DNA of 64,000 nucleotides, from positions 26,316 through 90,315 of the forward strand of contig JAZQFQ010000084.1 in assembly GCA_045539595.1 (NCBI GenBank). Direction: 5' to 3'. The number at the start of each line of letters is the position of its first letter. The stretch's first letter is position 1. Origin of the DNA: Eubacteriales bacterium. GTDB taxonomy: Bacteria > Bacillota > Clostridia > Oscillospirales > CAG-272. Shown here in pieces: positions 2,005-18,070 of the stretch. The position numbers and the translations under genes are program-made. Below the pieces are notes generated by a model. It searched no databases. It was not told the origin of the DNA and saw nothing but the letters and a program-made list of their open reading frames with translations.

Positions 2005-2052
2005 TAAAAAAGGGGCTGTTGCATGCAGATGCAACAGCCCCGGATTTTCTTT
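2005..2052. terminator. Bidirectional terminator between convergent genes
   Basis: GGGGCTGTTGCAT-GCAG-ATGCAACAGCCCC (2012-2041), flanked by an A-run and a T-rich tract. Confidence 0.75.
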
Positions 2053-3621
2053 TCACTCAATGACCGTGCGGACGAAGGTGATGCTGTTTTCGTAGAGATA
2101 ATATGTTATGTAGTTTCTGTGCAGCGGATGGTGCAACTCGATTTTCGCCAGTTCCGCGGTCATATCGGCAGAGAATACGGTCAGTGTATCCTTGCCGATC
2201 CGTCCCGTTTCACCAACCGCCTCCGATTCCAGTTTCAGCCATTTGGAGTGGCGGAAGGAAAGGCCGGCCAGCGGCATTTTTTCCTTCGTTCCGTCCACAT
2301 GTACTTGGTATATCTCCCCGGGAAGAATTGGATTCCGGTCATCGTAGTCGGTGCGGGCCTGTATGAACAAAACGCCGTCGTAGGTGGTCAGCGGGTGGCA
2401 GGCATCCCGGTATTCCGTGGCCATGCCGCTTTCCAGATCGTAAATGCCGTAGCCCCGGCTCCACTCCCAGCCGCCGATATAATAGGCAAAATGGGTGTCA
2501 TCCATAAATCCCAGAGGCGTGTAACCTATCACGTCGCCGATTCCTACTGCCTTGCAGTCGGGGGAGTCGCCCAGCATCACGTTGGTGAGAATCTGCCGTA
2601 CCGATCCGTCAGGATATTTCACGTCGATGCCGCCGTTGTTCCAGCCGTCCTCCTGGGTGTGATATACGGTATATGTGCCATGGGGAGAGTGCATAATGGC
2701 GTCGGCGGAGGGGAAAGCCTCCCATTCTACGGGAGTTACGGTAAACACGCCGTCCGCCTCGGTGATCTTGTAGCAGGCGGAGGTCTTGTAATATGCGCCG
2801 TCTTCCATCGGCATCCGATTCATAATCACACATCCGTCGTCGGTGTAGATCAGGTCGAATGGATCTTCGTCAATATCCAACGTCTCCCGATGGACGATTT
2901 CCCCGGTGGACAAATCCACGATAAACAAGTCGTCTGTGTGTACAAGGTAGCCGCTGGCATCGTTCCGCAGAACTTCGGATGTAACGTACATCCGATACCG
3001 ATCGCTGAAGGTGTAGTCCCTCACCTGCGTCTTTTCGTTCTTCACCGGGATTTTCACTGTGTGTACGGACAGATTGCCGGGATTTTCCACCACTTGGATC
3101 AGATGTGCCAGCGGCACGTCGGGGATATCCTCCCGGAGCGTTGCTGTGAATTGCCCCAGCGAATCGGACAGGCCCAGATAGTCCAGTGCCACGGTCGCGC
3201 TGTCTTTTTCTGCCACCACCGTCATCACAATCTCTCCACTGCCCGCACCGGCACCTACGGAAACAATGCGGCCGCCGGTATATCCCTCCGGCAGGGTGAG
3301 AGTGCCCCGGTAGTATTCGGCCGGATCCGCCTCCGAGGGCTGATGGACGACGTAATAGGCCAGCCCCATTTCCCAGACATACAAGGCGGGATTGCCGCCG
3401 AGGGGCGATCCCTTCAGGATGGCGTAATCCACGGAAAAGGGGAGCTGCTCCAGTTTCTCAAGAGCAGAAAAATCCGGGGAGGGAATATCCGCGACGGGGG
3501 GATCCGTGTCGGCGGGGGTGGATGTGCCCGGCACATCCGGCACATCCGGCGGATCGGTATGGCAGGCGGCCAGCGATGCACTCAGCAGGAGTGCGAGCAA
3601 TACGGCGAGGATTCGTTTCAT
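2053..3621 (-). CDS. Lipoprotein, function unknown (522 aa)
   Basis: GGAGG RBS precedes ATG at 3621. Signal peptide plus lipobox MKRILAVLLALLLSASLAAC, then a Pro/Asp-rich linker (PPDVPDVP). No catalytic motif recognised. Confidence 0.75.
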   Translation of the reverse strand: MKRILAVLLALLLSASLAACHTDPPDVPDVPGTSTPADTDPPVADIPSPDFSALEKLEQLPFSVDYAILKGSPLGGNPALYVWEMGLAYYVVHQPSEADPAEYYRGTLTLPEGYTGGRIVSVGAGAGSGEIVMTVVAEKDSATVALDYLGLSDSLGQFTATLREDIPDVPLAHLIQVVENPGNLSVHTVKIPVKNEKTQVRDYTFSDRYRMYVTSEVLRNDASGYLVHTDDLFIVDLSTGEIVHRETLDIDEDPFDLIYTDDGCVIMNRMPMEDGAYYKTSACYKITEADGVFTVTPVEWEAFPSADAIMHSPHGTYTVYHTQEDGWNNGGIDVKYPDGSVRQILTNVMLGDSPDCKAVGIGDVIGYTPLGFMDDTHFAYYIGGWEWSRGYGIYDLESGMATEYRDACHPLTTYDGVLFIQARTDYDDRNPILPGEIYQVHVDGTKEKMPLAGLSFRHSKWLKLESEAVGETGRIGKDTLTVFSADMTAELAKIELHHPLHRNYITYYLYENSITFVRTVIE

Positions 3622-3727
3622 AAGGATGCCTCCGTAAGTTGGTTTGTCTGTTGGACGGAGCGGGGAGGGGATTTGTTCCCGCGAAAAACACAACATATTG
3701 TTATTTCTTTGAGAGAGCATCAATGCA

Positions 3728-3756
3728 TTGACAAAAAAGGGAATTTGTGATATAAT
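3728..3756 (+). promoter_or_regulatory. Sigma-A type promoter for nrdR
   Basis: TTGACA (3728-3733), 17-nt spacer, TGaTATAAT (TATAAT at 3751-3756). Confidence 0.55.
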
Positions 3757-3806
3757 ACGGCATATTATGAAATCCCTTTGGTGCAGGTATGCAAAGGAGT
3801 TTTTCC

Positions 3807-4271
3807 ATGAAGTGTCCCATGTGCGGCTACGAAGACAGCAAAGTAATCGATTCCCGACCGGTAGAGGAGAGCGACAGCATCCGCCGTCGCCGTGAGTGCA
3901 AGAAATGTCAGAAGCGGTTTACGACCTATGAAATCATTGAGGCATTCCAGCCGCTGATCGTGAAAAAAGACGGTACGAAGGAATATTTTGATAAAAATAA
4001 GATCCTGGGCGGCCTGATGAAGGCCTGTCAGAAACGCCCGGTGGACGCAGAAGCCATCGCCGCGGAGATCGAGGTGGAGATCATGAATTCTCTCCGCCGG
4101 GAGATCCCCTCCCGGGAGATTGGCGAATTGGCCATGGAAAAACTGAAAAAGCGGGACGCGGTGGCCTACGTGCGCTTTGCATCCGTGTACCGCGAGTTCA
4201 AGGACGTGGAGACATTCATGAAAGAATTGCAGGGACTGAAAGAAGAGCCTACGGAAGACGCGGCGGAGTAA
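3807..4271 (+). CDS. nrdR: Transcriptional repressor NrdR
   Basis: MKCPMCGYEDSKVIDSRPVEESDSIRRRRECKKCQKRFTTYE zinc ribbon followed by an ATP-cone-like remainder. AAAGGAG lies upstream. Confidence 0.95.
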   Translation: MKCPMCGYEDSKVIDSRPVEESDSIRRRRECKKCQKRFTTYEIIEAFQPLIVKKDGTKEYFDKNKILGGLMKACQKRPVDAEAIAAEIEVEIMNSLRREIPSREIGELAMEKLKKRDAVAYVRFASVYREFKDVETFMKELQGLKEEPTEDAAE

Positions 4272-4309
4272 TCCGCCGCCGATTCTTCGGGAATCTTGCG
4301 CGATTCCCC

Positions 4310-4338
4310 TTGCATTTGTGCGTCGGGTGTGGTATACT
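4310..4338 (+). promoter_or_regulatory. Promoter for tRNA-Ser
   Basis: TTGCAT (4310-4315), 17-nt spacer, TGgTATACT (TATACT at 4333-4338); about 30 nt upstream of the tRNA. Confidence 0.6.
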
Positions 4339-4369
4339 ACTCCTTGGCGTAATGAATAATGGAATATAC

Positions 4370-4462
4370 GGAGAAGTACTCAAGTGGTCGAAGAGGCGTG
4401 ACTCGAAATCTCGTAGGGCGTGAAAAATCGCCGCGTGGGTTCAAATCCCACCTTCTCCGCCA
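4370..4462 (+). tRNA. tRNA-Ser (anticodon CGA), class II with long variable arm, CCA encoded
   Basis: Acceptor GGAGAAG/CTTCTCC. Anticodon loop CTCGAAA. T-arm GTGGG-TTCAAAT-CCCAC. One T:T mismatch in the anticodon stem. Confidence 0.88.
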
Positions 4463-4464
4463 AA

Positions 4465-4504
4465 ATCGACAGGTTTCGATAGAAGCCTGTCGATTTTTCT
4501 TTTT
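4465..4504 (+). terminator. Rho-independent terminator after tRNA-Ser
   Basis: ATCGACAGGTTTC-GATA-GAAGCCTGTCGAT followed by TTTTTCTTTT. Confidence 0.85.
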
Positions 4505-4736
4505 ATCTCTTCACTCTTCTCTTACTGCCTATTTTGGCGGAAGTAATAAGTAATAGTGAATAGTGAAAAAGTATGGGGTTGCGCTACGCGAACAATTTCA
4601 AAATTCGTAAGTTTAGTCTTATACGAAACGAACTCCTATTTTATCCGAGTGGCCGTCCCTGTAACGTCCTTTGCATTCCTCTCGTTGGAGGGAAGATTTC
4701 CCACACCTATGAATTTTTTGTAAAACCGCAATTCTG

Positions 4737-4793
4737 GGTTGACATCCGTCAACCCATGTGATATACTGGATGTACAGTAAACAAGTGTCAACC
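4737..4793 (+). promoter_or_regulatory. Promoter with candidate operator for the blaI-like operon
   Basis: TTGACA (4739-4744), 17-nt spacer, TGaTATACT (4762-4767). GGTTGAC-ATCC-GTCAACC dyad (4737-4754) overlaps the -35. A third GTCAACC half-site lies at 4787-4793. Confidence 0.55.
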
Positions 4794-4807
4794 GATGGAG
4801 GTGTCCT

Positions 4808-5191
4808 ATGGAACATATTACATTATCTGACGGCGAATGGAAGATTATGAAACTGTTGTGGGCACAGTCTCCCCACACCGTGGGCGAGATCGTCAAAGCC
4901 CTGGAGGGCGAGACCGGCTGGACCAAGCCCACCATTTTCGTCATGCTGAAGCGGTTGATCGCCAAAGGTGCCGTCCGCATGGACGACAGCGGTAAGCTGC
5001 AGGAATACTATCCCCTTATCCAGCGGGAGGACGTGGTTCCCCAGGAGGTGGATTCTTTCCTCAGCCGGGTCTTTGACGGAAGCGTGCGTATGATGATATC
5101 CGCTCTGACGGATCAGAAATCACTGACAAAGAAGGATATTGCCGAGCTCCGGCATATTCTGGATGAGGCGGAGCAGAACGGGAAGGAGTAA
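4808..5191 (+). CDS. BlaI/MecI/CopY family transcriptional repressor
   Basis: GGAGG RBS. 127 aa; LSDGEWKIMKLLW...TVGEIVKAL...GWTKPTIFVMLKRLIAKGAV winged helix typical of the family. Confidence 0.9.
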   Translation: MEHITLSDGEWKIMKLLWAQSPHTVGEIVKALEGETGWTKPTIFVMLKRLIAKGAVRMDDSGKLQEYYPLIQREDVVPQEVDSFLSRVFDGSVRMMISALTDQKSLTKKDIAELRHILDEAEQNGKE

Positions 5192-5194
5192 GCC

Positions 5195-8100
5195 GTGGCA
5201 GAATATCTTGTAACCCTATCGCTTTTGATCATGATTCTCTTGGTGGTGCGCGGCCTGTTCCGTAAATCCATTTCCCCCACGGTGATGTACGCCTTGTGGC
5301 TGGTGGTAGTCGTGCGGCTGTGCCTGCCGTTTTCGCTGTTCCAGGTAGAGGTGGATCTGCCCGCCTGGCAGGAGACAATCCCCCAGGAGCAGCAGGGGCA
5401 TCAGGGCGCGGCGGATCCTGGAATCGATCCGGATGCGATCACGCCGCCCACGTCCGGCGCGCCGAGCATGCCGGATACGCCCTCGGTGATTATCCCTACC
5501 ACACCGTCCCTTCCATCCGTACCCACCGTTCCCGCGATACCGGAAAATCCCACGGTGCCGGGTGAGGATTCCTTACCGGATATCCCCCATATCCCGGATG
5601 TTCCCGTTACCCCTGAGGTGCCGCCGGCACCGCCCGCCCCCATCGATTGGATGCGGGTGGCTGTTACGGTATGGATTGCGGGATCGGCCGTCCTGGCTTT
5701 GTGGTTTGCCATTACAGGAATCGTATATCATGGTCGGCTCATCACCCACCGGACGCTGTATAAGACTCTGCGCAAAACGAAGGTCTATCTCACCGAGGAC
5801 GAAAGCGCGCCTTGCCTGGCCGGCGTGGTCCCCGCGATCTACATTCCTCCCGTGGAGATGGATGAGGATGCCCGGGCGTTCATCGTGCTTCATGAATATA
5901 TGCATCTGCGCCACGGTGATCACGTGTGGGCGTTGGTTCGCATCCTGGCCCTTATTGTCCATTGGTGGAATCCCCTGGTGTGGGCGGCCGTCATCCTGTC
6001 CAAGCGGGACGCGGAGTTGGCCTGCGATCACGCCGTCGCGGCCCAGCTGAATCGGGAAAACCGATTGGAATACGCCCGCATTCTGTTGGATACGATTCCC
6101 CAGAAGCACCGTTATGCGGTGGGGCTGGGAAGTGCGCCCATGAAAGAGCGTATCCTCCGGCTGACAAAGACCCAGAAGAACCGCATCCTCTGCGTGGTTC
6201 TCGCTGTGATTATCACCGCCGCCGCGGTGGGATGCTCATTTGTCCATCTGACGGAGAAAGAGTCCCCTGAGGAGCCGCCCGCGTTCGATTTCGATCTCGA
6301 TACCCTGTGCCGGCATATCGCGGACGGCGATCTGTCGGCGCTGGATCTGTTTGATGCATCCAATGAAGAATTCCTGCAGGGGCAGTTTAATGCTCTGCAC
6401 GCTTATTACAGCGGCACAGCGGAAAAGGCCGGCGGCGATTGGGAAGCCATGCCCGAGGGGGGCGTGGCTCTGCCCGGGGAGCTTTCCTTTAAAAACTGCG
6501 AGAAATTCGAGTACAGCACCGCGTCACAAACGCCCGTGGTATTGCGTTATGACGTGGGGGATTACTGGCTGTATGCCGCCTTTACGCTCTTGGATGTGGG
6601 CACCACAGGCGACGTTTCCGAGATTCTGTGGCACCTGAGTGAGGCGTGGTTCATCCCCCAGTCGGACGCAGTGGAAGCCTCCGTGGCGGATCTTGCCGAA
6701 TGGAAGGTGTACAGCTATTTCCAGAATGTCGGCTATACCGAATGGAAAACTCTGAAATTTTACAACCAGGTGACGGGAGAATCGGATTATTTCTCCGCCG
6801 CCGCCGGGATAAAGATCACATCCCTGCAGTACAGCGGCGGAAAAGTGTTTGTCGAGTGTGACTCCCACGGATTTTTGATCTTTGATCTGACGGACGGATT
6901 GTATGAATGCCTGTCCACCAACAAAGACACCTATATTGCCTACAAAAACGAGTACGGCGCCTACATTCCCGGCTCCGGCCGCTGGCTGAGCGATAGCCGG
7001 CTGCAGGCGCGGGGAGAGAAGGGGATTTTCACCGTCACCGTGCTTGACGGGGAGTACAGTCTGGCGGATGCATCCCTGTCTGAATCCGAGATTCTGGAAA
7101 TCTGGCGGTACAATGTGGGCAATGCCCAAAAGAACAACAACGCTCCCCAGTACCATGTTCCCTATGGAAAACTGCTGAATGATGTGGGAAGCCATGTTCT
7201 GGATCTCTTCGTGATGAAGGGGCAGGCATATCTGGAGGCCCGTCAGGCGTATGACGAGGAAGCGGCCACCGTGCCGTGGCTGGTCTATATGATCCGGGCG
7301 TTGGATGTGTCCCGGGAGGAGATCACTTCCGCCTTGCAGAAGGATTTTGTTCCCTATACGGATGCCATTGTGGACGCGCTTTTCTCGGAGGATGACGGGC
7401 GGATCAATGAAACCTTCCACAGCCCTCTGGCCCTCTGCCATGAGGGGAAGGTGTACACCGCCTACGATCTCAGCCTGAAGATCACCGACGTGGATTCCGA
7501 GGAGCAGAAGGCATTTGTGCGCTCCATCCCGAAAGAGGATATCATCGCCCTGATCCGCGCCATACAAGCGCGGGATGCGATGCATGGCGTTGTGACACCC
7601 GGTGAGATCGTTAAACTGATCTATCGCTTGAAGGATATAACTCTGACCGCACCCGGGGACGAGTATGCGTACGGATCCTACTGCTATGTCCATGGCATGG
7701 CGTATCATTCCTATCCGTCCGCCCTTACGGATGCTTTGGACAGAGATGCGTTCAATGCGTGGCAGGAGGAAGCCCAGTGGCATACCCGGGAGAACGGATG
7801 TCCGTTTCCCCAGTCCAATATTTACGAATTTATCCATCATTTCAACATCCCCAAATCCCGCTTTGTGGAGTTGTACAATGAGCGGACTATAGACGATGAT
7901 TATCCTATCGATCTTCTGTACGGCGGGACCGCCGAGGCGGTAGATGCCTATTATCGCACCAGCGACCCGGAAAAAGAACTGGAGAGCATTAAATGGGCCA
8001 ACCTCCGGGAGTTGAAAATGCATATCAACGCCTATATCCGGGATGAGCTTCATATACAGATGAAGACCTCGCATTGCAGTCTGGCGGAACTGATGTATGT

Positions 8101-11100
8101 GGCCGGTATCAAAGCCGAGGAACTCTCTTCCTATTACAGTAAAGGACACGCAGTGAGTCCGGAAAATCGGTATGATACCATCTTCGACTACGATCCGGCG
8201 GCCATCGGTTATACAACGGATGCATCCTTTGAGAAAGTTCTGGCCCGCTATACGGCGTATTATCTGGACTGTGCCATCTGCGGACTGACTCCCTACGATA
8301 CTCCCTATGACCGACAGGTGAGCGAGATGCAGAATGGTTCATTCACGGACATCCCCCTCCCTGACAATTTCGCGGAATTCTATCACGAAGCGGAGCGGGT
8401 GTATGCGTTGTTCACCGGGTATCGTGCGAATATCTATACAGAAGGCAAATTCTCCGATGATGGAGCGGATTATCAGGCCGTTGACATCGACGGATGCACC
8501 ACTATGGCAGGACTTCGTGCGCTGTGTGAAACGTATTTTGACGCGGCTCTCACCGACAAACTGCTTTCCACCACCGTGATGAATCAATATCCCCTTTATC
8601 GTGAACATAACGGCAAGCTGTACCGCTTTAGCGGATACGCTGCTCAATTCGGATATGATATCGGCGACAACTATACGATGACTTCTGTACAGGCTGAAAA
8701 CGGCAAGCATACGGTGCGCGTTGACGCTGTGTGGAACGAAGGGGGGCGCGTGATTCCCGGCAAGGCAATGTGCACATACACCGTGGATGAAAACGGAGAA
8801 ATCCGCTTCACCTCTTTTGACTTGATGGCACAGGCACTGTGTGAAGTGTGGGGGCAGGGAACATCGGATACACCCAATGTGGAACCATCTACTCTCTACG
8901 AGTACAAAAACAAAAATCCGGGCAGCAGCCTGGTGTACGAGGGCTATACCGTCCAGTATGAACTTCCACATCCCACCTATGAGGGACAGACCTTTGATTT
9001 CCACATCCATCTGCCCCAGATCAACGACGATTCCCGGTATGTAGACGAGTGGAATCTGAACCTGGTCTACGAATACAATACGGCATACGAGGAGTATATC
9101 CGCAACAGCGCCTTTGGTCTCAACCGCAATTTCTATGCGGAGATCCGGTACGAAACCGTGACCACGGGCGACGTGGTGACGATCTACATCCTCAATTCCT
9201 GCGGTGTCTTGAATTCGGGGGATGCCAGACGCTCCTACGATATCTATCACTACGATACCAAGGGAAAGCGATTTCTCACCACCAATGAGTTCCTGGCCTA
9301 CTACGCCAAAGGGCAGTTTGCCTCCTCCTCAGTGGCGGATATCGTTGCCTTTATGAATGAGCATGCCTTTAACACCGATGAGGCCGGCACACCCATTCCC
9401 CTGAAGGAAGAGAATATCCAGGGCGTGATCCCCTCCGTCTTCGGCGGCGGCAAGTTTGACGTAGTATATCAGGGATACAGTATGGAAGGGAAGTTCGCTA
9501 CCCGCACTCTGTTCTCTCCCTATCCCACCTACGGTAATCCCCACCGATACACCTACCGCCTGACCTATCACGATTATACGGATTGCCATACGGCGGAAAT
9601 GAACGGCCGGCCCGTCGGCTACCGTCTGTTGCTCAGTCAGCGTGTGGAAGGTCAATACGACGCGGGTTATTATGTGGATTGCCTGTTTACTGAGGATATT
9701 GCCGAACGGCCGGAGAGCTATCCCCAGTCTGTGTACGGTGAGTATTACACCCCTGTGCGTGAAGATGCATACGGCAATATGTATATAGTCACCGATCACG
9801 AAACCGACCGTGGTCAGCTGCAAGCCTGGATTCCCTTCGATCAGCCCAGCGCGGCCCAGGATTATTACCGGGGCGTCCTCCTGGGGTATTTCAACTATGA
9901 CCGACTCTTCGGCGGAAATTATACGGTGGAGAAATCCGTTGGAAGTATGATTGCCAGTGTACTGGATGCTTACCGAAACGGTAAAGACCCAAACGAACTT
10001 CTCCCCGCATCCGAGACGAAATTCACTCCCTATCCCGCGAAAACCGTTCGCGCCAATCCCGGGGATGAGGAGATCCGTGCGATTCTCGATGCCGCCACGG
10101 TGGACGAAGCGGGAATCATCCGCCTTCGTGTGGATCTGGGTGAGGGATATATTCTGGAACTCCCCATGGATCTCGGTATCTTCGGCGAAAGTTATCAGGC
10201 CTACTTTACGGGAATCTATTTCATAAAACAGCAGAAAGTCGCCACCCAGGGGCCCTTTGTGGGCTACGTGGCGGATAAGACTACCCCGTGGATCGATCTG
10301 TATACCGAGAAAAACGGCACCTATGTGGGACGGATCCCCTATGAGATCTTCCACGATTGGATAGCCACCGATCGGGACAAAGACACGTGGACTCCCGGTT
10401 GGATGGGCGAGTATGTCTGCTTCTACTATGCCGAATTCGGCGACTTCCGTTGGGCGGCAGCCCATCTGCGGGATACGGTTCTGGGAAGCGGACGCAAGAA
10501 CGTGGCTACCTCCGCTGACGGCGGGAAAACGTGGGATATCGGCAGTACCCGGGACAACTACGGCGGAAATCATGTGGTCGGTATGGGATTTGCCACCGAA
10601 AAGATCGCCTTTATCAGCTATGATCCCTACAACGAGAACGACGGCGCGGACGGACCTGTGATCTCCCGCACCACGGACGGCGGCAAAACGTGGAAGCTGC
10701 TGGATGTCACAGTGCCGGATTCTCTGGGGGGACAGAAACTGATTGCCGGCATCCCGTTCTATGACGGGGATCTGCTTCGCTATCCTGTGTGGTTGAATCC
10801 CTCTCACGGATTCAGGGAAGGCGAACCCATGTACCTGATCTCCCGGGATAAGGGAATGACGTGGGAGTGGGAGAAGAATTCGACTTCCGGCACAGCCTCC
10901 CTCAGCGGCGTTCTCAGTTGCATTTTGAGGGGCGAAGAGGCGTTTTACGACACTGCCGCGAAACGGCGGGTATTTCTTACAGACTGGCTACGAACCAACG
11001 AAATGTTTGTCAGCAAGTATTCCGTAATCGATCTAAACGGCGACGGCGCGTCTGAATTGGTGCTGTGGCTGAATCGCGGCACCAATGAATACGTCGGCTT

Positions 11101-12961
11101 CCTGGTTCTTTACGACGAAAATACCACCGTGTACACCCATCTTCTGTATTACCGCCAGTTCAGCAATCTGAAAGAAGACGGAACTTTCGGCTTCTCCGGC
11201 GGTGTATCCAACCACGGAATCGGACGAATTGATTTTGAGGGAGACAAGTACACGATCCGTAGCCTCGCCTATTGTGAATCCGCCGACAATCAGAACGTAT
11301 CCTATTTCGTGGATAATAAGGCTGTCACCAAGGCTGCATTTGAGGCGTACCAAAGTGCACAAAACAGCAAGCCCGATGCCATCTGGGTGGAGCATTCCAT
11401 TGAACCTGCCCCCGGTTATAAACAATACACACCCGCTATCGATGTCGATACCGACAAATTGGATTATATCAAGCCCATGGCCATGTATGGCGAAAGCCAG
11501 CCGGGTGCTAACTTTGACCGCACAGCCAATATCTATCCCGGCACGGGATTCGAGGGCTATGCCGACGGCGTGGGCTACATTACCTTTGGTATTTGCAACG
11601 ATCGAAAATCGCCCGATTACGTATCCCGCTACTATACCTACCGCGTCACTTCGGCGGGGGGATATATCCTCTCCGTGGAAGAAGCGGAGACCATCACCCG
11701 GGATATCGTTCTGAAAAAAGGAAAGCCCTATACGGGCAGCCTGGAAGGACAGCACACCTGCGTGGTGAATAATCGGTATTACGGCATCACCATCTCCGGC
11801 AATACGATCTCCGCATCGGTGGGACTGTATCAGACGGATGCTGGCGGCACCGGAAAGGGTACGTATACCTACGATCCCGCGACGGGCAAAATGACCATCA
11901 CGACCATAGAGAAGTACCACGACGGCAACGGCAATCTCTTAGTGAATCCCCCGAAAACCGTCACGGGCAAACTGTATGAGTATAATGACATGGTGCACTT
12001 CCTCTACGATGATGAGAAGGCCACACCGCTTCCTCTGAGTTTCCCCAAGATCAATGCCTTTCCGCCGGATCGCACGAATTTCATATCCGATGATCTTGCG
12101 GGCGGATGGTATCGTTCCTTTCGGGATGAGATGGGCGACCAGTTCTACTACCTTGCCCTGGACCCCGAAACACAGCAGATCCGCTTTGACCACGGATTCT
12201 ACGACGGCAGCTACGCCGCCCGCTATGTGGGTACCTACCGTGTGGATTACAACTATATCATTCATGCCACCCTGCGGGACAACAACGATCCGGACGGCGG
12301 CGAGATGCAGTTCGTGTTCATTTTGGAGTACTCCCACGGCCGGGATGAGACGGGCGTAATGCGTACCACGATCAGTATCACTCCCCAAAGCTGCGATATG
12401 GAAAACTATCGTCCCATGCTGGGCCGCTATTTCGGTTTCAAGCGGGAGAAGGCCACCGCAGAGGAACTGACGGAACTGGCAGAGCAGTACAATTTCGTGA
12501 TGAGCGCCTATGAGAAAGCGGCGGAGGCGGCAAGTTGGTTCCGTACCGCCAGCCTGGTGGAAGCCGGGGCGGCAGACGGAAAGGATTCCATCGAATACGA
12601 CGGCCGCCGGTATTATCGGGTAACCAAATTCGATACCTACGCGGATCTGCGGCAGTATCTGGAAGAGTGGTTTTCCGCATCCCTGGTGGATCAGCTGCTG
12701 AATGATCAGAGCGTGGCATCCTACATCTCTCACAACGGGAAACTGTATGCCACACCCGGTATGGTCCCGCAGAATATCCGCCTGGGTGAGCGGTATTACA
12801 GCGGCGGAAAAGTTAAGGACGATTGGTATTCGCTGGACGTCACGGTAGAAGTGCTGGACACAAAGGATCTCACTACCGTCCTGGCGTATCAGAGTTTTCA
12901 GTTTGACTACCAATACAAAAACGGCAAGTGGGTATTTATAGGTTTCCCCCACATCCAATAA
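5195..12961 (+). CDS. M56 (BlaR1/MecR1-like) membrane metalloprotease fused to a very large extracytoplasmic region (2,588 aa)
   Basis: GTG start lies 3 nt after the blaI-like stop, with GGAAGGAG upstream. N-terminal TM helices. HEYMHLRHGDH (HExxH at 5891-5905). TM at about 6184-6246. About 2,230 aa of uninterrupted ORF follow, with three Asp-box motifs. Confidence 0.85.
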   Translation: MAEYLVTLSLLIMILLVVRGLFRKSISPTVMYALWLVVVVRLCLPFSLFQVEVDLPAWQETIPQEQQGHQGAADPGIDPDAITPPTSGAPSMPDTPSVIIPTTPSLPSVPTVPAIPENPTVPGEDSLPDIPHIPDVPVTPEVPPAPPAPIDWMRVAVTVWIAGSAVLALWFAITGIVYHGRLITHRTLYKTLRKTKVYLTEDESAPCLAGVVPAIYIPPVEMDEDARAFIVLHEYMHLRHGDHVWALVRILALIVHWWNPLVWAAVILSKRDAELACDHAVAAQLNRENRLEYARILLDTIPQKHRYAVGLGSAPMKERILRLTKTQKNRILCVVLAVIITAAAVGCSFVHLTEKESPEEPPAFDFDLDTLCRHIADGDLSALDLFDASNEEFLQGQFNALHAYYSGTAEKAGGDWEAMPEGGVALPGELSFKNCEKFEYSTASQTPVVLRYDVGDYWLYAAFTLLDVGTTGDVSEILWHLSEAWFIPQSDAVEASVADLAEWKVYSYFQNVGYTEWKTLKFYNQVTGESDYFSAAAGIKITSLQYSGGKVFVECDSHGFLIFDLTDGLYECLSTNKDTYIAYKNEYGAYIPGSGRWLSDSRLQARGEKGIFTVTVLDGEYSLADASLSESEILEIWRYNVGNAQKNNNAPQYHVPYGKLLNDVGSHVLDLFVMKGQAYLEARQAYDEEAATVPWLVYMIRALDVSREEITSALQKDFVPYTDAIVDALFSEDDGRINETFHSPLALCHEGKVYTAYDLSLKITDVDSEEQKAFVRSIPKEDIIALIRAIQARDAMHGVVTPGEIVKLIYRLKDITLTAPGDEYAYGSYCYVHGMAYHSYPSALTDALDRDAFNAWQEEAQWHTRENGCPFPQSNIYEFIHHFNIPKSRFVELYNERTIDDDYPIDLLYGGTAEAVDAYYRTSDPEKELESIKWANLRELKMHINAYIRDELHIQMKTSHCSLAELMYVAGIKAEELSSYYSKGHAVSPENRYDTIFDYDPAAIGYTTDASFEKVLARYTAYYLDCAICGLTPYDTPYDRQVSEMQNGSFTDIPLPDNFAEFYHEAERVYALFTGYRANIYTEGKFSDDGADYQAVDIDGCTTMAGLRALCETYFDAALTDKLLSTTVMNQYPLYREHNGKLYRFSGYAAQFGYDIGDNYTMTSVQAENGKHTVRVDAVWNEGGRVIPGKAMCTYTVDENGEIRFTSFDLMAQALCEVWGQGTSDTPNVEPSTLYEYKNKNPGSSLVYEGYTVQYELPHPTYEGQTFDFHIHLPQINDDSRYVDEWNLNLVYEYNTAYEEYIRNSAFGLNRNFYAEIRYETVTTGDVVTIYILNSCGVLNSGDARRSYDIYHYDTKGKRFLTTNEFLAYYAKGQFASSSVADIVAFMNEHAFNTDEAGTPIPLKEENIQGVIPSVFGGGKFDVVYQGYSMEGKFATRTLFSPYPTYGNPHRYTYRLTYHDYTDCHTAEMNGRPVGYRLLLSQRVEGQYDAGYYVDCLFTEDIAERPESYPQSVYGEYYTPVREDAYGNMYIVTDHETDRGQLQAWIPFDQPSAAQDYYRGVLLGYFNYDRLFGGNYTVEKSVGSMIASVLDAYRNGKDPNELLPASETKFTPYPAKTVRANPGDEEIRAILDAATVDEAGIIRLRVDLGEGYILELPMDLGIFGESYQAYFTGIYFIKQQKVATQGPFVGYVADKTTPWIDLYTEKNGTYVGRIPYEIFHDWIATDRDKDTWTPGWMGEYVCFYYAEFGDFRWAAAHLRDTVLGSGRKNVATSADGGKTWDIGSTRDNYGGNHVVGMGFATEKIAFISYDPYNENDGADGPVISRTTDGGKTWKLLDVTVPDSLGGQKLIAGIPFYDGDLLRYPVWLNPSHGFREGEPMYLISRDKGMTWEWEKNSTSGTASLSGVLSCILRGEEAFYDTAAKRRVFLTDWLRTNEMFVSKYSVIDLNGDGASELVLWLNRGTNEYVGFLVLYDENTTVYTHLLYYRQFSNLKEDGTFGFSGGVSNHGIGRIDFEGDKYTIRSLAYCESADNQNVSYFVDNKAVTKAAFEAYQSAQNSKPDAIWVEHSIEPAPGYKQYTPAIDVDTDKLDYIKPMAMYGESQPGANFDRTANIYPGTGFEGYADGVGYITFGICNDRKSPDYVSRYYTYRVTSAGGYILSVEEAETITRDIVLKKGKPYTGSLEGQHTCVVNNRYYGITISGNTISASVGLYQTDAGGTGKGTYTYDPATGKMTITTIEKYHDGNGNLLVNPPKTVTGKLYEYNDMVHFLYDDEKATPLPLSFPKINAFPPDRTNFISDDLAGGWYRSFRDEMGDQFYYLALDPETQQIRFDHGFYDGSYAARYVGTYRVDYNYIIHATLRDNNDPDGGEMQFVFILEYSHGRDETGVMRTTISITPQSCDMENYRPMLGRYFGFKREKATAEELTELAEQYNFVMSAYEKAAEAASWFRTASLVEAGAADGKDSIEYDGRRYYRVTKFDTYADLRQYLEEWFSASLVDQLLNDQSVASYISHNGKLYATPGMVPQNIRLGERYYSGGKVKDDWYSLDVTVEVLDTKDLTTVLAYQSFQFDYQYKNGKWVFIGFPHIQ

Positions 12962-12989
12962 CAATCATGGACAGGAGCCAGGTAAGCAT

Positions 12990-13322
12990 ATGAGCGACAC
13001 AGAACGACAGAACACCTACGAAATCACCTGCCAGCGGTGCATCGCCGATTTGTATCGCGCCGCGTACCTGACTCTTGCCGATTCCGCTCTGGCGCAGGAT
13101 GTTGTCAAACAAACCTGCGTCGCCTGCGTGCACCGATACGGGAAGTCCGAGGATCCTATCGAGATCCGATACAATCTGGTGCAGGATCTTACCCGCCGCT
13201 GCCGGCGGAAACTGCAGTCGTACACCCCGTCCACCGACGCCTTGCCGGAGGCAGTGCGATCTCTTACGTCGGATGCGCGGCTGAAGTGGGTGGCACGAGT
13301 GATGTTTGGAATGGCAGTGTAA
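12990..13322 (+). CDS. Hypothetical 110-aa protein with weak resemblance to sigma-70 regions 2 and 4 (truncated)
   Basis: Lies 28 nt downstream of the giant ORF. DLYRAAYLTLADSALAQDVVKQT resembles an ECF region 2 helix. LPEAVRSLTSDARLKWVARVMFG resembles the start of region 4. The ORF stops before any HTH. Confidence 0.4.
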   Translation: MSDTERQNTYEITCQRCIADLYRAAYLTLADSALAQDVVKQTCVACVHRYGKSEDPIEIRYNLVQDLTRRCRRKLQSYTPSTDALPEAVRSLTSDARLKWVARVMFGMAV

Positions 13323-13534
13323 ATCGACAAGCATATGTGGGACGGATGGAAAATCACGCGAATGAGCCGATCTTTTGCGGCGGGTTCGGTGACCCTCCGT
13401 CCCTTGTGTCTTTCCGCTGCCTTCCACGTTCCGACCGATTTTTGGGTATATGATGGGTAGGCATGATTTTTCCTTTTGGCGGCATACGTTGAGTCGGCGG
13501 CAGGAAAAGGATCCCAAAAAACTCAAAAGAAGTA

Positions 13535-13563
13535 TTGACAAACAAAAAAAACAAGAGTATAAT
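13535..13563 (+). promoter_or_regulatory. Consensus sigma-A promoter upstream of feoA
   Basis: TTGACA (13535-13540), 17-nt spacer, TATAAT (13558-13563), with an A-rich UP-like tract upstream. Confidence 0.7.
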
Positions 13564-13570
13564 AATGGAG

Positions 13571-13586
13571 GTTAGCGGGGGCTAAC
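13571..13586. promoter_or_regulatory. Palindrome copy 1, GTTAGC-GGGG-GCTAAC (candidate operator at the feo transcription start)
   Basis: 16-bp dyad immediately downstream of the -10, preceded by GGAG and followed by TCC and T5. Confidence 0.5.
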
Positions 13587-13603
13587 TCCTTTTTGCGGAG
13601 TGA

Positions 13604-13619
13604 GTTAGCCCATGCTAAT
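13604..13619. promoter_or_regulatory. Palindrome copy 2, GTTAGC-CCAT-GCTAAT
   Basis: Same half-sites (one mismatch), 33 bp downstream of copy 1, in the feoA leader. Confidence 0.45.
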
Positions 13620-13661
13620 CGAATTACGGTTTGTGCGTTGCGCATAAATTGAGGATATACG

Positions 13662-13883
13662 GTGACTGGTATGACATTAAAAGACGCTATCGAGGGAAGG
13701 GAATACATCATTCAGCGGATTGAAACGGATGACGAAGAGCTGGATGCGTTTTTGTTTTCCCTGGGCTGCTACAGCGGTGAGCCCATTACTGTCGTGACGC
13801 GCCGGAAGAGCGGCTGTGTTGTTTCCATAAAGGACGGAAGATACAGTATAGATGCACAATTGGCTGAGGCCATTGTGATTTAA
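13662..13883 (+). CDS. feoA: FeoA family ferrous iron transport protein
   Basis: 73 aa; GREYIIQRIETDD...GEPITVVTRRKSGCVVSIKDGRYSID, an SH3-like FeoA pattern. GTG start with GAGGA 6 nt upstream; alternative ATG at 13671. Confidence 0.85.
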   Translation: MTGMTLKDAIEGREYIIQRIETDDEELDAFLFSLGCYSGEPITVVTRRKSGCVVSIKDGRYSIDAQLAEAIVI

Positions 13884-13922
13884 GCGGCAAAGAACAATCT
13901 GCGAATGGTCTTTTGCCCGGAG

Positions 13923-13938
13923 GTTAGCGGCCGCTAAC
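13923..13938. promoter_or_regulatory. Palindrome copy 3, GTTAGC-GGCC-GCTAAC (feoA-feoB intergenic)
   Basis: Perfect 16-bp palindrome. It shares the 12-mer GGAGGTTAGCGG with copy 1. Confidence 0.45.
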
Positions 13939-13995
13939 ATATAAGGACGCCCCATCCGAACGATGGAAAGTATAGTTAATATAAGGAGATATTCC

Positions 13996-16053
13996 ATGAG
14001 AATTGCTTTAGCAGGCAACCCGAACTCAGGTAAGACCACCATGTACAACGCTCTCACCGGCCGAAACGAGAAAGTCGGCAACTGGGCGGGCGTTACCGTA
14101 GACAAGAAGGAGCACGCCATTAAGAGAGCGTATGCCGGCAGCGATACGCTGCTTGCGGTTGACTTGCCCGGAGCGTATTCCATGTCCCCCTTCACCAGTG
14201 AAGAGAGCATTACCAGCTCCTATGTAAAAAACGAAAATCCCGACGTCATTATCAATATCGTCGACGGCACCAATCTCAGCCGCAGTTTGTTCTTCACGAC
14301 GCAGCTGTTGGAGTTGGGCGTGCCGGTGGTGGTTGCCCTGAACAAGAGCGATCTCAATGACAAAAAAGGAAACAAGATCGATGTGGATATCCTGGCCGCT
14401 AAGTTGGGTTGTCCGGTTGTCCATACCACGGCTACCTCCGCTGACGGTCTGAAGGCGGTGGTGCAAGCGGCGGTCGCCGCGGCAAATACCCCCCAGAGTG
14501 CTCCGTATCATCAGGGGGCGATCGATCTGACCGATAAGGCGGCTGTAGTGGCCGCGGACCGCAAGCGGTTTGCCTTTGTGAATGACATCGTGAAGGCTGT
14601 GGAAACCCGCAAGGTCCTCACTCGATCCAGAAATGCCGGCGATGCCATCGATGCTGTGCTGACCAACAAGTGGCTCGGTATTCCGATCTTTGCCGTTGTT
14701 ATGTTCCTCGTGTTCCAGATTTCCCAGGCTTGGCTTGGCGCGTGGATCGCAGAAGGCGTGGAGATCGGTGACACATTCATTCCCGGCCTTGTGCCGCTTC
14801 TGGAGATTTTCCAGGGGTGGGTAGGCGATCTTCTCTCGGATGCCAATCCGCTTCTTTCCGCCATCCTGGTGGACGGCGTGATCGGCGGCGTCGCTGCCGT
14901 TGTGGGATTCCTGCCTCTTGTGATGGTTATGTACTTCCTCATTGCGCTGCTGGAAGATTGCGGATACATGTCCCGCGTGGCGGTGGTTCTGGACCCCATT
15001 TTCAAGAAGGTCGGTTTGTCCGGTAAATCCGTGATCCCGTTCGTTATTACCATCGGCTGTGCTGTGCCCGGTGTTATGGCTTCCCGTACTATCCGCAGCG
15101 AGCGGGAACGCCGCGCCACTGCCATGCTGGCTCCCTTTATGCCTTGCGGTGCCAAGATTCCGGTTATTTCCTTGTTTGCCGGTGCATTTTTTGACAACGC
15201 CGGCTGGGTGAGCACCGTGATGTATCTGACAGGCATCGTGCTCATCTTCTTCGGGGCCCTTCTCGTAAATAAAATAACCGGTTATAATGCGAGAAAATCG
15301 TTTTTCATCATCGAACTTCCCGAATACAAAGTGCCGTCCTTTTGGGGGGCATTCAAGTCCATGTGCAGCCGGGGCTGGTCGTACATCGTAAAGGCCGCTA
15401 CCATCATTCTTCTGTGCAACATGGCCGTACAGCTCATGCAGACTTTCACCTGGTCCTTCCGGGTGGCGGAGTCGGCCGATCAGTCCATCCTTGCCTCCAT
15501 TGCCGCTCCCTTCGCGTATCTGCTTGTTCCGATCATCGGCGTTCTTTCCTGGCAGATGGCGGCGGCAGCGATTACCGGCTTCATCGCTAAAGAGAATGTG
15601 GTGGGTACGCTGGCCGTTTGCTTTGTGGGCTTGGAGAATCTGATCGACACGGAAGAACTTGTACTGATAGAGGGGGGCGGTGCAGAAGTGGCCGGCATCA
15701 TGGCTATCACGAAAATGGCCGCCCTCGCGTATCTTATGTTTAACCTGTATACGCCGCCGTGCTTTGCCGCCATCGGTGCTATGAACGCCGAGATGCGGTC
15801 CGGTAAGTGGCTGTGGGGCGGTATCGGTCTCCAGCTGGCTGTGGGCTATACCGTATCCTATCTGGTATACACCATCGGTACGCTTATCATGGCTCCCGCT
15901 TCGCTGCACATCGGCGCAGCCATCGCCGGCCTGGTCGCGGTCCTTGTTATGGCCGGTATCGTGGTGGTGCTGATCCATAACACCGATCGGAAACAGAAGG
16001 TGGAGTGTACACTGGATGCTTCCGGAAAGAAAAACTATGCTGTGAGCAAATAA
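13996..16053 (+). CDS. feoB: Ferrous iron transporter FeoB
   Basis: AAGGAG RBS. MRIALAGNPNSGKTTMYNALTG G-domain P-loop followed by a polytopic permease. Confidence 0.95.
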   Translation: MRIALAGNPNSGKTTMYNALTGRNEKVGNWAGVTVDKKEHAIKRAYAGSDTLLAVDLPGAYSMSPFTSEESITSSYVKNENPDVIINIVDGTNLSRSLFFTTQLLELGVPVVVALNKSDLNDKKGNKIDVDILAAKLGCPVVHTTATSADGLKAVVQAAVAAANTPQSAPYHQGAIDLTDKAAVVAADRKRFAFVNDIVKAVETRKVLTRSRNAGDAIDAVLTNKWLGIPIFAVVMFLVFQISQAWLGAWIAEGVEIGDTFIPGLVPLLEIFQGWVGDLLSDANPLLSAILVDGVIGGVAAVVGFLPLVMVMYFLIALLEDCGYMSRVAVVLDPIFKKVGLSGKSVIPFVITIGCAVPGVMASRTIRSERERRATAMLAPFMPCGAKIPVISLFAGAFFDNAGWVSTVMYLTGIVLIFFGALLVNKITGYNARKSFFIIELPEYKVPSFWGAFKSMCSRGWSYIVKAATIILLCNMAVQLMQTFTWSFRVAESADQSILASIAAPFAYLLVPIIGVLSWQMAAAAITGFIAKENVVGTLAVCFVGLENLIDTEELVLIEGGGAEVAGIMAITKMAALAYLMFNLYTPPCFAAIGAMNAEMRSGKWLWGGIGLQLAVGYTVSYLVYTIGTLIMAPASLHIGAAIAGLVAVLVMAGIVVVLIHNTDRKQKVECTLDASGKKNYAVSK

Positions 16054-16424: not shown

Positions 16425-16955
16425 ATGACAATAGAAGAACGGTTCCGACAAATCTATGACACTACATACCGTCAAACGGCCGCTCAAATTCTGGCCAAGT
16501 CCCGCCAGAGTGCCGATGCCGCCGATTTGATTCAGGAGGTGTATTTGGAGGTGTATACGATCCTTCAGCGGCGGGGCCAGGGGTATATCCGGAATCCGGT
16601 TGCCCTGGTAGGGAAAATCACCCGGCAGACGTTGGCTCGCTATTACCGCACCATGAGCCGTCGGCAGGAGGTGTATGACGCATCCTCCGAGGAGGAGATC
16701 ACCGCAGAACTGGAGGACATCCATGCCTTGTCCGTGGAGGAGATCGCGGCCGATCGGGAGGTACTTTTGTGGACGGATCGGTATCTGCAAAAGCGGGGCG
16801 AGGAGGTGCGGAAGATCTTTCATCTGTACTACCGCTTCGGTATGACACTTCCGGAGATCGCCCGCCTGCTGGGCAGGACGGAATCCGATGTGAAGAACAA
16901 ACTGTATCGCACATTGAAAGAAATCAGTACCTATTGGAAAGGAGAAGAAACATGA
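16425..16955 (+). CDS. Sigma-70 family (ECF-like) RNA polymerase sigma factor
   Basis: AGGAGG RBS before ATG 16425. ADAADLIQEVYLEVY (region 2) and MTLPEIARLLGRTESDVKNKLYRTLKEI (region 4 HTH). Confidence 0.8.
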   Translation: MTIEERFRQIYDTTYRQTAAQILAKSRQSADAADLIQEVYLEVYTILQRRGQGYIRNPVALVGKITRQTLARYYRTMSRRQEVYDASSEEEITAELEDIHALSVEEIAADREVLLWTDRYLQKRGEEVRKIFHLYYRFGMTLPEIARLLGRTESDVKNKLYRTLKEISTYWKGEET

Positions 16956-18070
16956 AACTGGATGAGTTGATTCTGGAGGCCACCAAGGACGATCTGGTCG
17001 GGACAGATGCGGACAGTATCCTGGCCATGGCACGGCAGAAGAAAAGCACTGCCCATACATTTTCCGGCTGGAAAAAAGCGATTCTGATCGCCGCGGCGGT
17101 ATGCCTTCTGGTGGGAACGGTTTCCGCCACGGCTTTACTCAGTGGCTTTGGAAACACTTTTTCCCGCCCGGTGGACACGGGCAATGTGACCATTCTCTCC
17201 TCTGAATCCACCAACAAAAAGGTCAAGTGGAATCTGACGGAGGTGTGGTACGACGAATTTACTTTGTTTATCGGCGGCACGGTGATTACGCCGGAACCGC
17301 TTTCCCTCAGTGAAGAACATGATGCGACCTGTCAGGTGTGGCTTCCCGGGGAGAATCGGTTTGATTTCATGATTCTGCACGTTTACCCCACCGGGGAGAA
17401 GGAATCCTCCTTTATCATGAAACTACAGAGGGATGAATCGCCCCTCACGGTGAGTGAGACTGCCATTGCATTGAAAATTTCCAATTTCTATGACGGGGCT
17501 TTGATTCCCCGGCGGGAGGATGGCTCTTATAGCATCAGCATTGAAGAATTACAGCAATACCTGAATTACCCCGGCGAGTGGCAATTTGAATTGGCTTTGA
17601 CAAACAGCAACTACAACGCCATCCATGTAGCGGAAAGGTATGAGAGCCGGGTGGAGTATGCTCCCGATACGGTGGTGACATCGGTAACGGTTACTCCTTT
17701 TACCCTGAAAGTGGAGGGGGAGGCGTTGGTGCATCGCTATATCAGCTCTTTCGGCGGCTATGGCGAGAATCCCATGAGCGTTATGCTGAGAATGAAGGAC
17801 GGCACCTATCTGGGCGGCACGAAACGGTATGAATATACAGAGAGCCGTATTTGCTATTCTAAGAATACCCCCGAATGCATTCTTTACCGCTTTGCGGAGC
17901 CGATTGATCCCGCCGAGGTGGACGCTATCATCCTGGAAACCGGCTGGGCATACTTTGCCGAGCGAGATAAAGCGTTCATGGAGGAGAGCGGGTACGTTGT
18001 GATGCCGGATGTTACTTGGGACGGGAAGTGTCTGGGATATCGCTGTGTGTTTGAGATCCCCGCTCCCTGA
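16952..18070 (+). CDS. Single-pass membrane protein, putative cognate anti-sigma factor (372 aa)
   Basis: ATGA start/stop overlap with the sigma gene, with GGAGAAG RBS. Short N-terminal cytoplasmic segment, TM (AILIAAAVCLLVGTVSATALL), then a ~300-aa extracytoplasmic domain. Confidence 0.6.
   Translation: MKLDELILEATKDDLVGTDADSILAMARQKKSTAHTFSGWKKAILIAAAVCLLVGTVSATALLSGFGNTFSRPVDTGNVTILSSESTNKKVKWNLTEVWYDEFTLFIGGTVITPEPLSLSEEHDATCQVWLPGENRFDFMILHVYPTGEKESSFIMKLQRDESPLTVSETAIALKISNFYDGALIPRREDGSYSISIEELQQYLNYPGEWQFELALTNSNYNAIHVAERYESRVEYAPDTVVTSVTVTPFTLKVEGEALVHRYISSFGGYGENPMSVMLRMKDGTYLGGTKRYEYTESRICYSKNTPECILYRFAEPIDPAEVDAIILETGWAYFAERDKAFMEESGYVVMPDVTWDGKCLGYRCVFEIPAP

Follow-up and report, generated by a model that had tools for sequence, protein, structure and literature searches.

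A giant M56 metalloprotease with a mosaic ectodomain in a probable non-canonical BlaI/BlaR-type operon of a Eubacteriales bacterium

A stretch of 64,000 nucleotides (nt) from Eubacteriales bacterium (GenBank assembly GCA_045539595.1, contig JAZQFQ010000084.1, positions 26,316 to 90,315 of the forward strand), referred to below as the window, contains a BlaI-type repressor gene, a gene for a 2,588-residue membrane metalloprotease of the M56 (BlaR1-like) family, and a gene for a small cytoplasmic protein. With moderate confidence the locus is read as a non-canonical, CenIR-like signalling operon of the BlaI/BlaR type, in which these three genes supply the repressor, a giant sensor-protease and a small protein. 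The reading is supported by the family matches, the invariant catalytic residues, the transmembrane (TM) topology, the linkage to blaI and the conserved promoter with its dyads, as well as by purifying selection in all three genes where it was measured. The features of the operon, in coordinates of the window, are as follows.

4738-4753, no strand: operator-like dyad 1, GTTGAC-ATCC-GTCAAC, a perfect inverted repeat that overlaps the -35 hexamer
4739-4767, plus strand: sigma-70-type promoter, TTGACA-17 nt-TATACT with TG before the -10 hexamer, 11/12 consensus, conserved in related upstream alignments
4777-4792, no strand: operator-like dyad 2, GTAAAC-AAGT-GTCAAC, just 3' of the -10 hexamer, with one mismatch to the pattern
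4808-5191, plus strand: blaI-like repressor of 127 residues, winged-helix BlaI/MecI/CopY family, full-length match to PF03965
5195-12961, plus strand: giant M56 (BlaR1-like) membrane metalloprotease gene, 2,588 residues, GTG start, a stop-free open reading frame (ORF) with PF05569
5195-6271, plus strand: M56 transducer module, residues 1-359, comprising TM1, TM2, a proline-rich outside loop, TM3, a cytoplasmic zinc-protease domain and TM4, from PF05569 and hydropathy
5891-5905, plus strand: HEYMH zinc-binding/catalytic motif, residues 233-237 (H233, E234, H237), aligned to HEYAH of BlaR1
6014-6028, plus strand: second zinc-site motif (ExxxD), E274-LAC-D278, aligned to EVEAD of BlaR1
6176-6241, plus strand: TM4 with features of a lipoprotein signal peptide, residues 328-349, lipobox A-A-V-G-C347, from the sequence pattern
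12990-13322, plus strand: third gene, a 110-residue cytoplasmic protein faintly similar to sigma-70 region 2, beginning 28 nt past the giant ORF

The Peptidase_M56 model (PF05569) matched residues 152-316 of the giant protein (E 3e-38; 132.1 bits against a cut-off of 31). A 19-residue hydropathy scan placed TM segments at residues 4-22, 30-48, 155-173 and 331-349 (nt 6185-6241), with an extra hydrophobic stretch at 250-268 within the protease domain and no hydrophobic segment past residue 349. The outside loop between TM2 and TM3 (residues 50-150) is 27% proline, and the two zinc-site motifs, HExxH and ExxxD, lie between TM3 and TM4. This layout of four TM helices is that described for BlaR-type proteins (PMC13492132), and it is predicted to place residues 350-2588 outside the membrane. 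The M56 module aligns to residues 181-270 of Staphylococcus aureus BlaR1. H233, E234, H237, E274 and D278 are invariant in an alignment of 49 sequences and have their equivalents in the motifs of that protein. The M56 modules of the relatives are 41-95% identical to this one, apart from those of P0048 (33%) and P0049 (26%). The ratio of nonsynonymous to synonymous substitution rates (dN/dS), taken against the related locus L001, is about 0.14 for the M56 module and about 0.22 for residues 1233-2588 of the ectodomain. Since 2,588 stop-free codons are beyond chance at 54% G+C and dN/dS is low, the giant ORF is a real gene under purifying selection. It contains neither tandem repeats nor sizeable direct DNA repeats.

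A first-pass annotation, made from the letters of the window alone, had described a 127-residue BlaI-type ORF at 4808-5191, a GTG 3 nt beyond its stop codon that opens one uninterrupted ORF with N-terminal TM helices and HExxH at 5891-5905, and a further TM helix near 6184-6246 followed by about 2,230 residues with no stop. The coordinates, the PF03965 and PF05569 matches and the hydropathy scan agree with it on each of these, including the position of TM4.

The Penicillinase_R model (PF03965) covered residues 6-120 of the 127-residue ORF (E 2.9e-31; 108.6 bits against a cut-off of 22.6). The protein scored 81 against the threshold of 121.95 of the CopY/TcrY model TIGR02698, and it has no cysteine and thus lacks the CxCxxxxCxC metal site. 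BlaI identity is 64-99% across the family loci (those with an M56 module at least 33% identical) and 31-38% in the distant loci L019-L023, and dN/dS of blaI against L001 is about 0.03. In every related locus that includes upstream sequence, blaI lies directly upstream of the M56 gene.

The pattern GTTRAC-N4-GTYAAC occurs twice in the window, against 0.25 matches expected by chance. The exact dyad was found in 13 of the 25 related loci (399 kb searched), with one or two copies per locus, all about 55-75 nt upstream of the blaI start, so that in 463 kb (64 kb plus 399 kb) it is restricted to blaI promoters of this family. Both position and sequence of dyad 2 are kept in relatives. In distant loci the two half-sites shift jointly (GATAAC/GTTATC in L016; GACTAT-type in L020 and L021), the behaviour to be expected if operator and repressor evolve together. 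The two dyads are regarded as putative palindromic BlaI operators at the operon's own promoter. An Rfam scan of 4200-14200 returned a tRNA only, with no riboswitch or leader RNA.

Homologues of the 110-residue protein occupy the same position in L001, L003, L007, L008, L009 and L010. The family is mostly 108-111 residues long and has no Pfam domain; matches to NCBIfam sigma-factor models (E 6e-6 to 4e-5) fall far below the cut-offs. A 142-residue homologue (L024, 6153-6581; 44% identity) lies downstream of the stand-alone lipoprotein P0075 in a neighbourhood with an extracytoplasmic function (ECF) sigma factor gene, which indicates that the small gene travels with the ectodomain or lipoprotein modules and not with M56/BlaI. 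Flanking genes vary among the related loci, which indicates that the three genes travel together as a cassette.

About nine modules were delimited in the ectodomain by BLAST mapping to 48 relatives, a HMMER search with residues 1233-2432, and two AlphaFold2 models, for which the alignment rows were long collinear substrings of relatives.

6347-7069, plus strand: module A, residues 385-625, beta-rich, no assigned fold, shared only with the close relatives P0014 (37%) and P0070, low model confidence
7082-8284, plus strand: module B, residues 630-1030, predicted helical, no assigned fold, 25-27% identity to P0018, P0019, P0021, P0025 and P0026, low model confidence
8342-8854, plus strand: module C, residues 1050-1220, copy 1 of an IseA-like fold, from Foldseek and a repeat with residues 2469-2534
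8891-10222, plus strand: module D, residues 1233-1676, with sub-units 1233-1552 and 1546-1677, 57-68% identical blocks in P0012, P0013, P0016 and P0017
10238-10885, plus strand: module E, residues 1682-1897, BNR/Asp-box beta unit, Asp-boxes at residues 1773, 1826 and 1883, predicted local distance difference test (pLDDT) about 85
10898-11404, plus strand: module F, residues 1902-2070, DLDGDGxxE motif, pLDDT about 90
11423-12454, plus strand: module G, residues 2077-2420, all-beta, two sub-units, one to three copies in relatives
12491-12958, plus strand: module C', residues 2433-2588, copy 2 of the IseA-like fold, PF16800, repeat of C, model confidence 45-75

In Bacillus subtilis the DL-endopeptidases LytE, LytF, CwlS and CwlO are inhibited by IseA (YoeB), which is secreted as a free protein of about 180 residues. 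IseA was the top Foldseek match of module C (2rsx; TM-score 0.66, probability 1.00), which also matched IseA in its complexes with CwlO (8wt4_A) and LytE (8i2e_A), with a TM-score of 0.65 each; pLDDT of this module is 59-95 per 10-residue block and mostly 71-95. Module C' scored below the cut-offs of the IseA models (PF16800, 25.2 bits against 29.9, E 1.7e-5; NF058588, 14.4 against 200). The giant differs from IseA in that two IseA-like copies, with sequence scores below the curated cut-offs, are embedded in a membrane-anchored protein. Comparison of the protein with itself gave a single internal repeat, C against C', which ruled out a repeat array as the architecture of the ectodomain.

The profile of module E matched two blades of sialidase propellers (E 2e-8) and scored 22 against the cut-off of 27 of PF02012; at about 215 residues the module is too short for a full six-bladed propeller. 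Foldseek with a 912-residue multi-domain model gave generic beta-propeller matches only (TM-score about 0.1-0.3) and left modules F and G unclassified. Against PDB sequences, the profiles of modules A-D had no match and that of module F found only an FG-GAP-like calcium-loop motif in YesW, with no solved relative. Module D had no match in Pfam either; its blocks also occur in lipoproteins such as P0054, P0055 and P0058. A DUF4163/DUF3298 (RsiV-type) fold was considered for this module and dropped, as Pfam, PDB profiles and Foldseek gave it no support.

By analogy with BlaR1/MecR1 and CenIR, dimers of BlaI would occupy both dyads and keep the operon silent. The effect of an event at the ectodomain would pass through TM4 to the cytoplasmic zinc protease, upon which BlaI would be inactivated by proteolysis and the operon de-repressed. 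Neither the window nor the roughly 20 kb surrounding each relative contains a further copy of the operator, so the main output would probably be the operon itself, that is, more of the surface protein and of the small sigma-like protein, the latter perhaps relaying the signal. In the most speculative step, the signal would probably be a cell-envelope event (contact with a wall hydrolase or a glycan) and not a small antibiotic, because the ectodomain carries two modules of the IseA fold and a BNR unit of the sialidase kind; for the BNR module we infer glycan binding. The precedent of CenIR points in the same direction.

Several points weigh against this scheme. The cleavage site N101-F102 of S. 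aureus BlaI is not conserved, the aligned positions being Ser-Ala, and the search of this genome for operators covered 64 kb. Most modules have no recognisable fold or function, and the second structural model (residues 361-1552) is mostly of low confidence, with a mean pLDDT of 49.9. Much of the family has no IseA-like modules, and the differing module content of close relatives argues against a single conserved ligand. In addition, given the lipobox at TM4, the ectodomain might be severed from the transducer by cleavage.

The segment around TM4 reads KTQKNR-ILCVVLAVIITA-AAVGC347-SF, with a basic n-region, a hydrophobic core and a lipobox, and has its N-terminus inside and its C-terminus outside. 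It starts at residue 328, past three TM helices and the protease domain, and is thus not N-terminal as in ordinary lipoproteins. The stand-alone lipoprotein P0075 (678 residues), whose gene has its own ribosome-binding site and adjoins an ECF sigma factor gene, starts MLTKRKKNRCACLILALILTQSAVGCSF and is 49% identical to the TM4 region over 47 residues. This homology to a signal peptide gives the giant the appearance of a fusion between an M56 module and the precursor of a lipoprotein. TM4 might then be a working internal signal peptide, with Lgt lipidating Cys347 and signal peptidase II (Lsp) cutting before it. The giant would in that case be a polyprotein that yields a 346-residue sensor-less M56 protease, similar to those of mycobacteria and Pseudomonas or to CenR, and a lipid-anchored mosaic surface protein of about 2,240 residues, and signalling would proceed by non-covalent contact or by monitoring of lipoprotein maturation itself. 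The orientation and the basic n-region fit a signal peptide, as does the homology to that of a true lipoprotein. A Gram-positive lipobox pattern stands at the outer end of TM4 in 71 of the 87 M56 proteins collected, with canonical forms in distant lineages (LLAGC, LLTGC, VLTGC), while TM4 of S. aureus BlaR1 has no lipobox; furthermore, most carriers of the same modules that lack M56 are lipoproteins. Against this, the motif is missing in 16 of the 87, among them the close relatives P0005, P0008, P0009 and P0010, which have AAVVC (valine at -1), and P0018, P0019, P0021, P0025 and P0026, which have no cysteine at this position, with the same architecture kept throughout. The lipobox could simply be a relic of gene fusion, and to our knowledge there is no precedent for processing by Lgt and Lsp of a lipobox behind three TM helices. 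Such processing is considered unlikely, at about one chance among several. If it did occur, signalling by BlaI/BlaR would be coupled to lipoprotein maturation or to a detachable, exchangeable lipoprotein co-receptor, a mode of sensor wiring not described for regulated-proteolysis systems.

The relatives carry the modules in differing orders and numbers, and their ectodomains are far more variable than BlaI and M56. Whole-block differences are found even between proteins that are 83-95% identical in their shared parts: P0002 has a 144-residue insert at residue 1231, P0004 lacks residues 1222-1637 and P0007 lacks residues 1100-1903, and in P0005, P0006, P0008, P0009 and P0010 most or all of residues 360-1232 are replaced. 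Against L001, the synonymous rate (dS) is 0.35 in the ectodomain (8891-12958), below the values for the M56 module (0.57) and blaI (0.53), which suggests that lineages have recently exchanged ectodomain cassettes by recombination.

An exhaustive HMMER search with residues 1233-2432 gave 1,366 matches at E <= 1e-3. An M56 module is present in 43 of the 140 best new cluster representatives, and most of the others start with a lipoprotein signal peptide. Module F by itself forms a stand-alone lipoprotein family of about 200-290 residues (29 proteins aligned, most with a lipoprotein signal peptide). In ten module-carrying lipoproteins Pfam recognised almost nothing. By sequence comparison, then, the ectodomain is a mosaic, and the lipoproteins of Clostridia draw on the same pool of modules. 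As a further observation, ECF sigma genes with putative anti-sigma, LRR_5 or DUF3298 partners (L003, 2703-5503; L004, 11528-12909; L024, 1110-3915) adjoin M56/BlaI cassettes or related lipoprotein genes, a hint that one set of surface modules is used with two kinds of signalling chassis.

This variability bears on a further alternative, that the ectodomain acts chiefly as a functional structure at the cell surface, for instance by inhibiting wall hydrolases, binding glycans or mediating adhesion, and that M56 is a membrane anchor within a simple loop of autoregulation to which no specific external ligand belongs. Such a role would accord with module content that is highly variable between close relatives, with modules common to ordinary lipoproteins, with the relaxed constraint on the ectodomain and a dS that points to cassette exchange, and with the lack of a detectable regulon beyond the operon in the window and the related loci. 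An active site invariant across 49 divergent proteins and purifying selection on M56 are unexpected for a mere anchor, however, and the tight linkage to blaI together with the conserved operators indicates that regulated proteolysis matters. This alternative is judged improbable, at roughly one chance in seven; the protein may have the dual role, as surface structure and signalling device, that the first-pass annotation suggested.

At least 49 giants of 1,434-2,753 residues, all with PF05569, were recovered by a word-indexed protein search of NCBI, ENA, JGI and Logan assemblies; the few with names are annotated as proteins of Clostridia or Ruminococcaceae metagenome-assembled genomes (MAGs). 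The architecture, which the first-pass annotation had proposed to seek in related genomes, thus recurs in independent assemblies. A scan of GTDB species representatives gave 18 loci, one of them in a distant Paenibacillus and the others in roe-deer, goat, faecal or other uncultured-bacterium MAGs named Clostridia, Eubacteriales or Oscillospiraceae. The M56 ORFs at these loci span 455-2,437 residues, and the giants are therefore the upper end of a continuum. The giants belong to uncultured Clostridia that inhabit the herbivore gut. A word-index search with residues 361-1040 returned two proteins only and missed the identical P0001, which reflects a limit of the index and not rarity. In L011 and L014 (MAG RGIG4012) M56 genes stand in tandem, with a 1,475-residue ORF open at its 5' end followed by another M56 N-terminus; the arrangement recalls a Clostridium thermocellum operon with two blaR1 genes.

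It is very improbable that the long ORF arose by chimeric assembly of several genes or that it is a pseudogene in decay. The exact protein is found on a single contig, and relatives differ by whole blocks, which assemblers that mix strains could in principle create. The block boundaries nevertheless coincide with module boundaries, the 2,588 codons are free of stops with a dN/dS of about 0.2, and the gene lacks DNA repeats that could misguide an assembler; moreover, relative P0005 is present on four contigs (the two places shown are from two samples), and the 49 giants are spread over assemblies from NCBI, ENA, JGI and Logan.

Searches of Pfam, NCBIfam and PDB sequences found no transpeptidase or penicillin-binding protein (PBP) domain in the giant ORF, and profiles from the family alignments had no such match in PDB. 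Foldseek found no PBP fold in the two models, in which residues 361-1049 and 1233-1552 are mostly of low confidence and residues 1553-1676 are left unmodelled. PF00905 is absent from all 23 diverse family members scanned, and the precomputed Pfam domains of all 49 relatives list no transpeptidase domain. With the BlaR1 sensor domain of S. aureus pN315 and BlaZ as queries nothing in the giant ORF was matched, while the N-terminal part of the same BlaR1, as a positive control, matched nt 5825-6103. Among the NCBIfam BlaR1/MecR1 models (NF000326, NF033108, NF033109), blaR1_generic scored 69.6 against a cut-off of 400, in a match confined to the M56 part, MecR1 25.1 against 1200, and BlaR1 15.9 against 1200. 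No beta-lactamase gene adjoins the operon, and BlaZ had no significant match within the window. The lack of serine beta-lactam-sensor motifs, noted by eye in the first-pass annotation as weak negative evidence, is upheld by these domain, profile and fold searches and control queries. That the giant is a true beta-lactam sensor with a cryptic penicillin-binding domain, as the family name alone and the match of blaR1_generic to the protease part might suggest, is extremely improbable given the low score of that match, the absence of a transpeptidase domain from Pfam, PDB-profile and (on models of partly low confidence) fold searches, the failure of the BlaR1-sensor and BlaZ queries in the ORF, and the lack of an adjacent beta-lactamase gene. 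Elsewhere in the window, the only weak similarity to the BlaR1 sensor (43743-43952, minus strand; E 0.012) lies within a 705-residue ORF (43110-45227, minus strand), which is probably a housekeeping PBP unrelated to this locus.

A BlaI/BlaR-type operon with no penicillin sensor is not exceptional. Only about 6% of some 15,000 M56 proteins carry a transpeptidase domain, the commonest architecture is M56 with an unannotated C-terminal region, and about 96% of M56 proteins are found near a blaI, usually upstream (Kurtz et al., J Bacteriol 2026, PMC13492132). The present locus falls within the definition used there, having an M56 protein with no transpeptidase domain and a BlaI homologue within five genes, upstream. 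Fusions of M56 to extracellular domains of unknown function were noted in 2013 (PMC3924330). The first-pass annotation had proposed that a conserved repressor and transducer chassis is kept while the sensor is replaced by one large multi-domain region. The invariant catalytic residues and the lack of a penicillin-binding domain sustain both the chassis and the replacement. The replacement is not exceptional, given the 6% figure (PMC13492132), nor is the ectodomain a single dedicated sensor, its string of modules being gained, lost and reordered in relatives and also found as free lipoproteins. The TM4 lipobox, the third operon gene and the operator pair were not mentioned in that annotation.

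The closest likeness is to CenIR of Clostridioides difficile, a BlaIR system with no transpeptidase domain that controls envelope genes including that of the peptidoglycan hydrolase Cwp6 (PMC13492132). Both have a blaI-like gene directly upstream of the M56 gene, four TM helices, HExxH and no penicillin-binding domain; both have a host among the Clostridia, and for both a connection with the cell envelope is likely. CenR has an outside part that falls short of a transpeptidase domain by about 100 residues and is predicted to be disordered, whereas here that part consists of about 2,230 residues of folded modules. The CenIR regulon comprises about 12 genes, whereas only self-regulation is detectable here, and the lipobox and third gene of the present locus are not described for CenIR.

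With BlaR1/BlaI and MecR1/MecI of S. aureus and B. licheniformis the locus shares the aligned HExxH and ExxxD motifs of M56, a PF03965 repressor and paired promoter dyads. It differs from BlaR1/MecR1 in having no class-D-like sensor and no beta-lactamase or PBP2a target gene, and in the proline-rich stretch that replaces the outside loop between TM2 and TM3. The giant has 2,588 residues against 585 for BlaR1 and a TM4 lipobox that S. aureus BlaR1 lacks; the N101-F102 cleavage site of S. aureus BlaI is likewise a point of difference. Rv1845c/Rv1846c (Mycobacterium tuberculosis), MAB_2414c/2415c (M. abscessus) and PvmSR (Pseudomonas aeruginosa, bioRxiv 10.64898/2026.08.03.742534) are sensor-less pairs of M56 and BlaI that do not respond to beta-lactams. 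Such BlaR proteins end shortly past TM4 and would resemble the giant only if its ectodomain were cleaved at the lipobox.

The BlaI paralogues Clo1313_0696 and Clo1313_1845 of C. thermocellum each bind, upstream of the operon to which they belong, two inverted-repeat pairs, as determined by DNA affinity purification sequencing (DAP-seq) and electrophoretic mobility shift assay (EMSA), and have regulons of one to three operons (PMC8457756). Two dyad pairs at the own operon and a narrow regulon are points of likeness, whereas the half-site here is GTTGAC/GTCAAC and the M56 partners of the C. thermocellum paralogues are of ordinary size. In the distant relatives L020 and L021, whose M56 proteins are of ordinary size, the promoters have repeats of the GTGACTAT / TACTATC type. 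These are located some 40-90 nt before blaI and are similar to the GACTAT/GTCTAT half-sites established by experiment for the C. thermocellum paralogues.

Sensor replacement as an idea is therefore already known from the survey of M56 proteins (PMC13492132), the sensor-less pairs and the fusions noted earlier (PMC3924330). The principle of BlaI/BlaR systems that do not respond to beta-lactams is thus established, and what is new is the size, the mosaicism and the lipobox. No description was found in open-access text of a giant mosaic ectodomain, a module pool shared with lipoproteins, IseA-like modules, a TM4 lipobox or the three-gene cassette.

The following features lie upstream of the operon.

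3789-4271: nrdR, upstream neighbour
4370-4462: tRNA-Ser(CGA), upstream neighbour
4462-4497: terminator-like hairpin, upstream of the operon promoter

The next unit downstream, feoAB, has its own promoter with 12/12 consensus (13535-13563). The regions upstream of feoA and feoB hold three GTTAGC-N4-GCTAAC dyads, at 13571-13586 (just downstream of this promoter), 13604-13619 and 13923-13938, with 0.06 expected per 64 kb. Their half-sites recall DtxR/IdeR iron boxes, which suggests iron-responsive repression of feoAB. Two further ORFs, at 2023-3750 (575 residues) and 16769-18070 (433 residues), lie near the locus and have no Pfam match at E <= 0.001. The opposite strand has a long ORF across each of them, and either strand may be the coding one.

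BlaI/BlaR pairs are textbook switches of antibiotic resistance. Recent work indicates that most of them sense something other than beta-lactams, and the giant locus is an extreme case, in which a conserved protease-repressor switch is linked to a large and rapidly reshuffled set of surface modules that gut Clostridia also use as free lipoproteins. It offers three handles on what such systems sense: the operon is compact and self-contained and its operator is clear, the IseA-like modules direct attention to peptidoglycan hydrolases, and from the conserved lipobox a processing event can be predicted. The family also brings to light a large body of uncharacterised surface-protein sequence missed by current domain databases.

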